The translations under genes were made by a program, and so were the position numbers. From Bacillales bacterium UBA6120 (lineage in GTDB: Bacteria > Bacillota_I > Bacilli_A > RFN20 > CAG-826), in assembly GCA_002422535.1 (NCBI GenBank), contig DIVY01000003.1, forward strand, positions 10,523 to 74,522: DNA of 64,000 nucleotides, read 5' to 3'. Positions within the stretch are counted from its first letter, which is position 1. Each line of letters starts with the position of its first letter. Positions 31,961 through 33,674 of the stretch are shown here, piece after piece. The notes beneath the pieces are model-generated. The model searched no databases. It worked only from the letters and a program-made list of their open reading frames with translations, and was not told the DNA's origin.

Positions 31961-33596
<1,636 letters not shown>

Positions 33597-33600
33597 AATT

Positions 33601-33640
33601 CTCCTGGTTTTGATGAAGGTGGTTACCAGATAACACCTTC
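33601..33640 (-). promoter_or_regulatory. preQ1-I riboswitch (type 2-like) controlling queT translation
   Basis: Minus-strand RNA: GAAGGUG-UUAUCUGGUAAC-CACCUUC-AUCAAAACCAGGAG-AAUU-AUG. It has a 7-bp stem, a 12-nt loop ending in GUAAC, and an A-rich tail, closely resembling the T. tengcongensis preQ1-I aptamer (CUGGG-UCGCAGUAAC-CCCAG-UUAACAAAACAAGG). The loop CUGG can pair with the tail CCAG that overlaps the SD, which would occlude it through a pseudoknot. Confidence 0.55.
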
Positions 33641-33646
33641 GTGTTA

Positions 33647-33674
33647 ATTGTAGCCGTTTACGCCGATAAATCAA
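33647..33674 (-). promoter_or_regulatory. Promoter for the queT operon (-35 TTGATT, 16 nt, -10 TACAAT)
   Basis: The minus strand reads TTGATT-tatcggcgtaaacggc-TACAAT-taacac-G, with the riboswitch hairpin starting right there. Confidence 0.45.

Follow-up and report, generated by a model that had tools for sequence, protein, structure and literature searches.

A likely class I preQ1 riboswitch of type II signature in front of queT in an uncultured Bacilli lineage

The closest described relatives of the element reported here are the class I riboswitches that bind preQ1, 7-aminomethyl-7-deazaguanine. Their division into types follows definitions from 2023-2024 Wedekind-lab papers. Type I carries UC before the 3´ strand of the P1 helix, and type II carries AC at this site and governs queT genes (PMC11625349). 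Type III, which occurs in yhhQ leaders of gamma-proteobacteria, combines UU with AC and exhibits an AAGG tail and a short loop made up of pyrimidines only (PMC11625349; also PMC10622847). The type II aptamer of Thermoanaerobacter tengcongensis (Tte), with the published sequence CUGGGUCGCAGUAACCCCAGUUAACAAAACAAGGG, is composed of the segments CUGGG-UCGCAG-UAAC-CCCAG-UUAACAAAA-CAAGG (PMC10639078). C15 of Tte pairs with preQ1, whereas U6 and A29 read the ligand edge; G5-C16 forms the floor of the pocket and C7.G11-C30 its ceiling (PMC7641330). A-minor contacts were also observed in the A-rich tail of the solved preQ1-I structure (PMC7641330).

Here we describe a 40-nt element in the window, which is the whole 64,000-nt stretch of DNA analysed. 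The element is located on the minus strand in front of the queT-tgt-queA operon and is very probably a class I preQ1 riboswitch with the type II signature that acts on translation. It is best described as a genuine but ordinary member of the preQ1-I (type II-like) family that falls below the Rfam threshold. We infer its ligand identity, its OFF direction and its transcription start site (TSS), and take the binding geometry by homology from the Tte structure.

The leader and its operon

Positions 33640..33601 on the minus strand read GAAGGUG-UUAUCUGGUAAC-CACCUUC-AUCAAAACCAGGAG and are followed by AAUU and the AUG at 33596..33594, which places the operon start codon 4 nt 3´ of the element. The hairpin, the loop ending in GUAAC and the CAAAAC tail that a first-pass annotation had described at this site were all found, and its parallels to Tte in the loop end and the tail agree with the published sequence (PMC10639078). 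The features of the leader and of the operon are the following.

33640..33597, minus strand: leader RNA, GAAGGUGUUAUCUGGUAACCACCUUCAUCAAAACCAGGAGAAUU
33634..33640, minus strand: P1 5´ strand, GAAGGUG; the top G33634 is the equivalent of Tte G5 (pocket floor)
33630..33633, minus strand: loop L1, UUAU; U33633 is the equivalent of Tte U6 (ligand edge contact; role from PMC7641330)
33626..33629, minus strand: P2 5´ strand (anti-SD), CUGG; G33626 is the equivalent of Tte G11 (ceiling)
33622..33625, minus strand: loop L2, UAAC; C33622 is the predicted specificity base (Tte C15), and the A before it is the type II signature
33615..33621, minus strand: P1 3´ strand, CACCUUC; C33621 is the equivalent of Tte C16
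33608..33614, minus strand: L3, the A-rich tail AUCAAAA; A33608 is the equivalent of Tte A29 (ligand edge contact)
33604..33607, minus strand: P2 3´ strand, CCAG; C33607 is the equivalent of Tte C30
33601..33605, minus strand: Shine-Dalgarno sequence (SD), AGGAG, by direct reading; its AGG is inside P2
33090..33596, minus strand: queT, 168 aa, from ATG 33596 to the stop TAG at 33092..33090; Pfam PF06177, 141.7 bits
31960..33084, minus strand: tgt (queuine tRNA-ribosyltransferase), 6 nt 3´ of queT; Pfam PF01702, 520 bits
30929..31960, minus strand: queA, sharing one base with the end of tgt; Pfam PF02547, 446.6 bits
33669..33674, minus strand: -35-like hexamer TTGATT from the promoter scan, weak on its own
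33647..33652, minus strand: -10 hexamer TACAAT; predicted TSS at ~33642-33639, the base of P1

By direct reading, P1 comprises 7 bp and P2 4-5 bp, and the loop of 12 nt contains five purines. CUGG (33629..33626) is complementary to CCAG (33607..33604), with a possible extra U.G pair (33630/33603). This helix overlaps the SD as the first-pass annotation had stated, the AGG of AGGAG lying within P2. Nearest-neighbour energies amount to -9.0 kcal/mol for P1, -7.6 kcal/mol for the loop/tail duplex and -7.4 kcal/mol for the SD paired with a generic 16S 3´ end. Taken by itself, the window gives the element modest statistical significance; single-sequence folding gives the hairpin an MFE z-score of -1.08, and 3.6% of shuffled loops attain a loop/tail helix of 6 pairs. 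The significance of the element comes from comparison with its relatives, not from the single-sequence fold or from the promoter match.

The third position of L1 and position -4 of L2 (within 33622-33633, minus strand) can also pair, which lengthens P1 in the ligand-free MFE structure. These two positions change together between UUA...UAAC (the window and loci L085 and L090) and UUG...CAAC (L001, L086 and L088), and the co-change is absent in L002, L003, L087 and L094. The pair may represent a weak alternative helix of the apo state that hides the anti-SD.

ATG 33596 is taken as the true start of queT because QueT homologues comprise 160-172 aa and the identical protein is publicly called at 168 aa from this ATG (ENA ERZ27315036 k141_8421). 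A mechanical ORF of 194 aa, which begins at TTG 33674 and runs through the element, was rejected as the real queT on the length of the homologues; its TTG coincides with bases 1-3 of the -35 hexamer TTGATT. The over-extended queT ORF reported at first pass does span the element, but it is confined to the mechanical list, and gene callers use the 168-aa form. The tgt gene is probably co-transcribed with queT, and the queT-tgt order is also found in relatives, which are uncultured Bacilli and Acholeplasmatales-like and Erysipelotrichales-like MAGs. A divergent DegV gene is located upstream of queT.

The hexamers of the promoter are arranged as TTGATT-16-TACAAT at 33674..33647 (minus strand). Such sites are as numerous in the region as expected from shuffling, and the match therefore carries little weight by itself. 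In the closest relatives, L085 and L090, the -35 hexamer is kept as TTGATT/TTGATA at the 16-nt spacing, and a TAnnnT -10 box is positioned 5-6 nt upstream of a 7-nt P1 in 11/11 leaders of the CUGG lineage to which the window belongs, which supports the early proposal of a promoter with its TSS at the hairpin base. Among all 61 distinct leaders aligned, 32 carry a -10 box within 3-10 nt of P1 (mode 6 nt), often with an extended-10 TG. The conserved position of the -10 box suggests a TSS at ~33642-33639, and the aptamer would thus begin at the 5´ end of the mRNA.

Homologous leaders and the Rfam models

Rfam 15 was scanned with the 64-kb window at gathering and with segments of 401 nt and 76 nt at E<=10. 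No match to PreQ1 (RF00522), preQ1-II or preQ1-III was obtained in the window at gathering or in the two segments at E<=10, so the minus-strand RF00522 hit by which the first-pass annotation was to be checked did not appear; these scans gave noise alone (snoRNA, U2 and Poribacteria-1). The absence of an RF00522 match at E<=10 on 76 nt implies that the window copy scores below ~10-11 bits or was lost in the filters. RF00522 comprises 45 positions with a gathering score of 39 bits, and its consensus carries the type I signature (PMC11625349), UC 5´ of the P1 3´ strand. Together, these three properties leave little room for type II-like loops.

Related loci behave in the same manner. None of 40 related queT loci (0/40) yielded any preQ1 class at gathering, a scan in which the purine, glycine and tRNA models do fire on those loci. 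Matches over the full RF00522 model were recorded below threshold for the leaders of L079 (25.8 bits, local E 5.8e-4), L064 (25.8 bits) and L024 (23.9 bits), and these sub-threshold full-length matches are the sole control for queT leaders, with no positive control at gathering. Because canonical-looking relatives reach merely 24-26 bits and 0/40 loci reach gathering, the Rfam miss reflects a problem of sensitivity and not a refutation. The position of the window element below the RF00522 gathering threshold is read as model bias combined with short length. Just downstream of queT, a purine riboswitch (RF00167, 65.8 bits) is present in L006 (3647-3744) and a glycine riboswitch (RF00504, 61.4 bits) in L163 (1090-1178).

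For the comparison with relatives, 80 genome loci, 18 loci encoding the closest QueT proteins and 80 metagenome loci were taken. One leader architecture is common to ~60/80 genome loci and ~35/62 metagenome loci and is always located directly upstream of queT. Its 5´ part consists of a P1 strand (5-8 bp in the helix, with an invariant UG/CA top), UU(N), CCUUG and (C/A)NUAAC; its 3´ part consists of the P1 3´ strand, an A-rich tail and CAAGG(AG), and the start codon follows after 0-10 nt. Roughly half of the homologues occupy a ~40-nt spacer between prs (confirmed by Pfam) and queT and have no promoter of their own. In the window, genes of queuosine synthesis or salvage likewise lie downstream, queT-tgt-queA following the element. 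The first-pass annotation had named an RF00522 miss, joined with orthologous queT leaders lacking the hairpin-and-tail arrangement, as grounds against itself; the miss occurred and the orthologous leaders have the arrangement.

A covariance model, R1, was constructed from 16 leaders of one loop architecture, none of them from the lineage of the window and with QueT proteins ~50% identical to that of the window. With both strands of the window searched (128 kb) and filters off, its best match is exactly 33601..33640 on the minus strand over the full length of the model. This match scores 23.2 bits (E 0.0012, R1 E-values being rough) compared with 11.4 bits for the runner-up, the A-rich SD region of degV. 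Applied to 416 kb of genome loci, R1 gave 59 matches at E<=1, and 59/59 are queT leaders; no match fell in the genome loci that had been scored as lacking the element. Within 74 kb of metagenome loci, 35/37 matches at E<=1 are queT leaders.

In many relatives, queT is located directly 3´ of prs (ribose-phosphate pyrophosphokinase), and the element occupies the spacer; examples are L009 (1543-2445), L013 (1541-2449) and L017 (1470-2426). Several loci depart from the common arrangement. A Prs protein with the C-terminal extension ...HNESGTSLPPEYLAFY occurs in L004, L011, L017, L019, L025, L029 and L034, which are loci without the element. L097/L098 (QueT 69% identical; 280-400) have an AT-rich leader from which the element has been lost. 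Loci L129-L135 share a different conserved leader (...uuuuuuaguuuugauaaaaguuugaggcaauaaaaacuuuuaaaggag...) ~90 nt upstream of queT, for example, at 310-400 in L129. No Rfam family matched this leader, and the best score, 19 bits, was given by an unrelated sRNA. The leader may represent a divergent preQ1-II or a further element that responds to preQ1.

Pairing was evaluated on a final alignment of 61 distinct leaders, which was built on the anchors UG followed by UU, AC followed by CA, and the AGG that comes first after the A-tract; gaps were filled with N. The anchors are our choice, and identity to CCUUG, rather than pairing, determined where the P2 5´ strand was set. A plain MAFFT alignment of 49 leaders was discarded for pair counting because the P1 5´ strand was shifted wherever the length of L1 differed, and the CM-fitted alignment A4 was not used for P2 because a covariance model without a pseudoknot term puts the P2 strand of the window one register off. 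In the final alignment, 90.2% of the cells of P1 (7 pairs) and P2 (5 pairs) are paired, compared with 25-55% when the 3´ partners are slid, and 0/500 shuffles equalled the observed pairing or covariation score. An H-type pseudoknot, the P1 hairpin combined with a loop/tail P2, was thus found in the window and across the 61 leaders. Five of the seven P1 pairs changed on both sides, and of the two uppermost pairs, one is U-A in 61/61 leaders and the other G-C in 60/61. P2 alone is paired in 98.4% of cells, compared with 19-63% when slid.

At the P2 column 17/47, 48 leaders have U-A and 10 have G-C. The G-C group comprises the window together with its nearest relatives, whose QueT is 68-99% identical, and carries (U/C/A)CUGG/CCAGG rather than CCUUG/CAAGG. 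This double change was seen in one lineage and may represent a single evolutionary event. The closest relative with a different leader, L085 (197-236; QueT 93% identical), combines UCUGG with CAAGG and contains one G.A mismatch in P2. Metagenome leaders add further, independent states, CCUG/CAGG, in which one pair is lost on both strands (L159, L161 and L177), and the wobble forms CUUUG/CAAGG (L144 and L146) and CCUUG/CAGGG (L147).

Larger variations were observed in the loops. A hairpin (GACAGAGCUUCUGUC) is inserted in L2 of L147 (308-363), and an insertion of ~35 nt is located in the A-rich L3 tail of L118 (313-386). The loops of L046, L049 and L071 contain CCUC (or CCUCU/GCCUC), for which the best partner is GAGG/GGAGG of the SD; in this pairing the register of P2 moves 3 nt downstream. 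Two of these leaders, L049 and L071, differ further in that ACC replaces AAC before P1.

The queT leaders of this uncultured Bacilli/Acholeplasma-like clade might be regarded as a distinct subgroup of class I that is systematically missed by the single PreQ1 model of Rfam. Such a subgroup would join the UU and the full Watson-Crick SD occlusion of type III to the AC/G-C-ceiling pocket of type II, would drift in P2 by compensatory changes and would tolerate hairpin insertions in L2/L3. We consider this grouping unlikely. If it were true, the affinity, the discrimination between preQ0 and preQ1 or the switching behaviour might be different in the CUGG/CCAG lineage.

Ligand pocket and predicted control of translation

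Aligned on a 5-bp P1 core, the window reads AGGUG-UUAUCUGG-UAAC-CACCU-UCAUCAAAA-CCAGG, and each ligand-contacting position of Tte has an equivalent. A U opens L1 (U33633 for U6), an A ends L3 (A33608 for A29), and G-C pairs form both the floor (G33634-C33621) and the ceiling (G33626-C33607). The specificity cytosine, Tte C15 or Bsu C17, is present as C33622. All columns that contact preQ1 in Tte are invariant or at least 90% conserved in the 61-leader alignment. UU after the P1 5´ strand and C before the P1 3´ strand each occur in 61/61 leaders, the A preceding that C occurs in at least 90%, and the A-tract columns before C-x-AGG are invariant or at least 90% conserved.

The queuosine-precursor transporter operon is most likely shut off at translation. 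A leader of ~45 nt would start at the base of P1 and fold into a hairpin of 5-7 bp (P1) with an A-rich tail. Upon preQ1 binding, the loop CUGG is expected to pair with the tail CCAG, closing the H-type pseudoknot (P2). The ligand would be sandwiched between the top P1 pair, G33634-C33621, and the P2 pair G33626-C33607, with C33622 as its Watson-Crick partner and with U33633 and A33608 reading its edge. P2 would then bury the AGG of the SD AGGAG, 4 nt from the AUG, and ribosome loading on queT should fall when the precursor is sufficient. Expression of tgt and queA would probably fall as well, through coupling or a shared mRNA. The energies of -7.6 and -7.4 kcal/mol indicate that P2 and the ribosome compete on roughly equal terms, a balance that the bound ligand may tip towards P2.

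A ligand other than preQ1 could be accommodated by the same fold. The lineage of the window or the whole clade, salvage-dependent uncultured Bacilli, might sense preQ0 or another 7-deazapurine imported by QueT. Class I aptamers vary widely in preQ0/preQ1 discrimination (PMC10622847), and the L2 of the window lineage is two nucleotides shorter (4 nt) than in most of the clade, with G-C instead of U-A as the second P2 pair from the pocket. However, the changed P2 pair has no contact with the pocket, the equivalents of U6, C15, A29, G5-C16 and G11-C30 are all unchanged, and L2 UAAC is the same as in Tte, which binds preQ1 at nanomolar affinity (PMC10639078, PMC7641330). A change of ligand is quite improbable.

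The same conserved positions weigh on the proposal that the leader senses no metabolite and is a ligand-independent structure for constitutive low translation or for stabilisation of the mRNA 5´ end, which we regard as highly improbable. A hairpin at the extreme 5´ end could guard against 5´ exonucleases, P2 could form without ligand, and an element of this type would be consistent with the missing Rfam match. Nevertheless, the unpaired UU, AAC and A-tract are as conserved as the helices and coincide with the ligand contacts of the solved preQ1-I structures, and the element is exclusive to queT across hundreds of kb. Moreover, prs-queT operons contain the element at internal sites, at which there is no 5´ end.

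Control by translation rather than by transcription is indicated because the leader lacks a terminator, the SD is part of P2, and half of the homologues are located in prs-queT spacers without a promoter of their own. In a scan of the leader, the stretch from the aptamer to the start codon showed no terminator stem, attenuator or U-run. Termination is the mode of action of B. subtilis queC, the best-known riboswitch of type II (PMC11625349), but a terminating, Bsu-like preQ1-I riboswitch is hardly credible at a site where just 4 nt separate the SD from the AUG and the P2 3´ strand is the SD itself. The sequestration of the SD claimed at first pass is consistent with both the coverage of AGG by P2 and the terminator-free leader. 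A chance hairpin in an AT-rich intergenic region, with which the z-score of -1.08, the 3.6% of matching shuffled loops and the promoter-like sites at shuffle expectation would agree, is effectively refuted by the position and architecture conserved with covariation at ~100 independent loci.

A translational preQ1-I riboswitch at this position would be a regulatory RNA over queuosine-precursor salvage (queT-tgt-queA) in a probably salvage-dependent uncultured Bacilli lineage, and it is invisible to an Rfam gathering scan. Dozens of homologous queT leaders are equally invisible and would be recovered by a subtype-specific covariance model. The natural P2 variants (CCUUG/CAAGG, CUGG/CCAG, CCUG/CAGG, the wobbles and the L085-type mismatch) constitute a ready-made mutational series, which could be used to examine how the strength of SD occlusion tunes a very small translational riboswitch. 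The understanding of preQ1-I riboswitch function is unchanged, and the value of the element is mainly in annotation.

Comparison with described preQ1 riboswitches

In Bacillota, SD occlusion at queT (COG4708) is also the mode of control exerted by the preQ1-II (RF01054) and preQ1-III (RF02680) riboswitches. They differ from the window element in that they are about twice its size and exhibit HLout pseudoknot folds and other pockets.

Type I of class I, represented by the Carnobacterium antarcticum riboswitch with two stacked preQ1 molecules, has its general fold, its UU motif and an A-rich tail in common with the window element. In contrast, UC precedes the P1 3´ strand in type I (PMC11625349), whereas AC is found in the window and in at least 90% of its relatives. 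Type I was therefore rejected, and binding of two ligands is not expected in the window.

Type III, as in the E. coli yhhQ leader, has the same UU after the P1 5´ strand and the same AC at the specificity base. It likewise occludes the SD by Watson-Crick pairing, binds a single ligand and acts on translation. Conversely, type III has a pyrimidine-only loop of ~9 nt, three P2 pairs with base triples, and an AAGG tail in which the first A reads the ligand; it is almost confined to gamma-proteobacteria, upstream of yhhQ, whereas the window element belongs to Bacilli and is located upstream of queT. The 12-nt loop with five purines, the tail CCAGG and the queT context in an uncultured Bacilli lineage led to the rejection of type III.

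The closest likeness is to type II of preQ1-I (Tte and B. subtilis; RF00522), which is likewise an H-type pseudoknot with a 5-bp P1 core, AC and a G-C ceiling. The AC of the window precedes the P1 3´ strand directly (UAAC before CACCUUC), and the type-2-like assignment of the first-pass annotation is borne out by this AC, the purine-containing 12-nt loop, the G-C ceiling and the queT context. L2 of Tte (U12-C15) is identical to the UAAC of the window, and the tails match as ...CAAAAC-xAGG in the window and ...CAAAAC-AAGG in Tte. The SD is located in the P2 3´ strand as in Tte, and the association with queT is that of type II. Certain discrepancies were observed. P2 comprises four Watson-Crick pairs and a possible U.G pair in the window, compared with two canonical and two non-canonical pairs in Tte. 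L1 comprises 4 nt (UUAU) rather than the 1-2 nt of type II, and P1 of the window can be extended to 7 bp.
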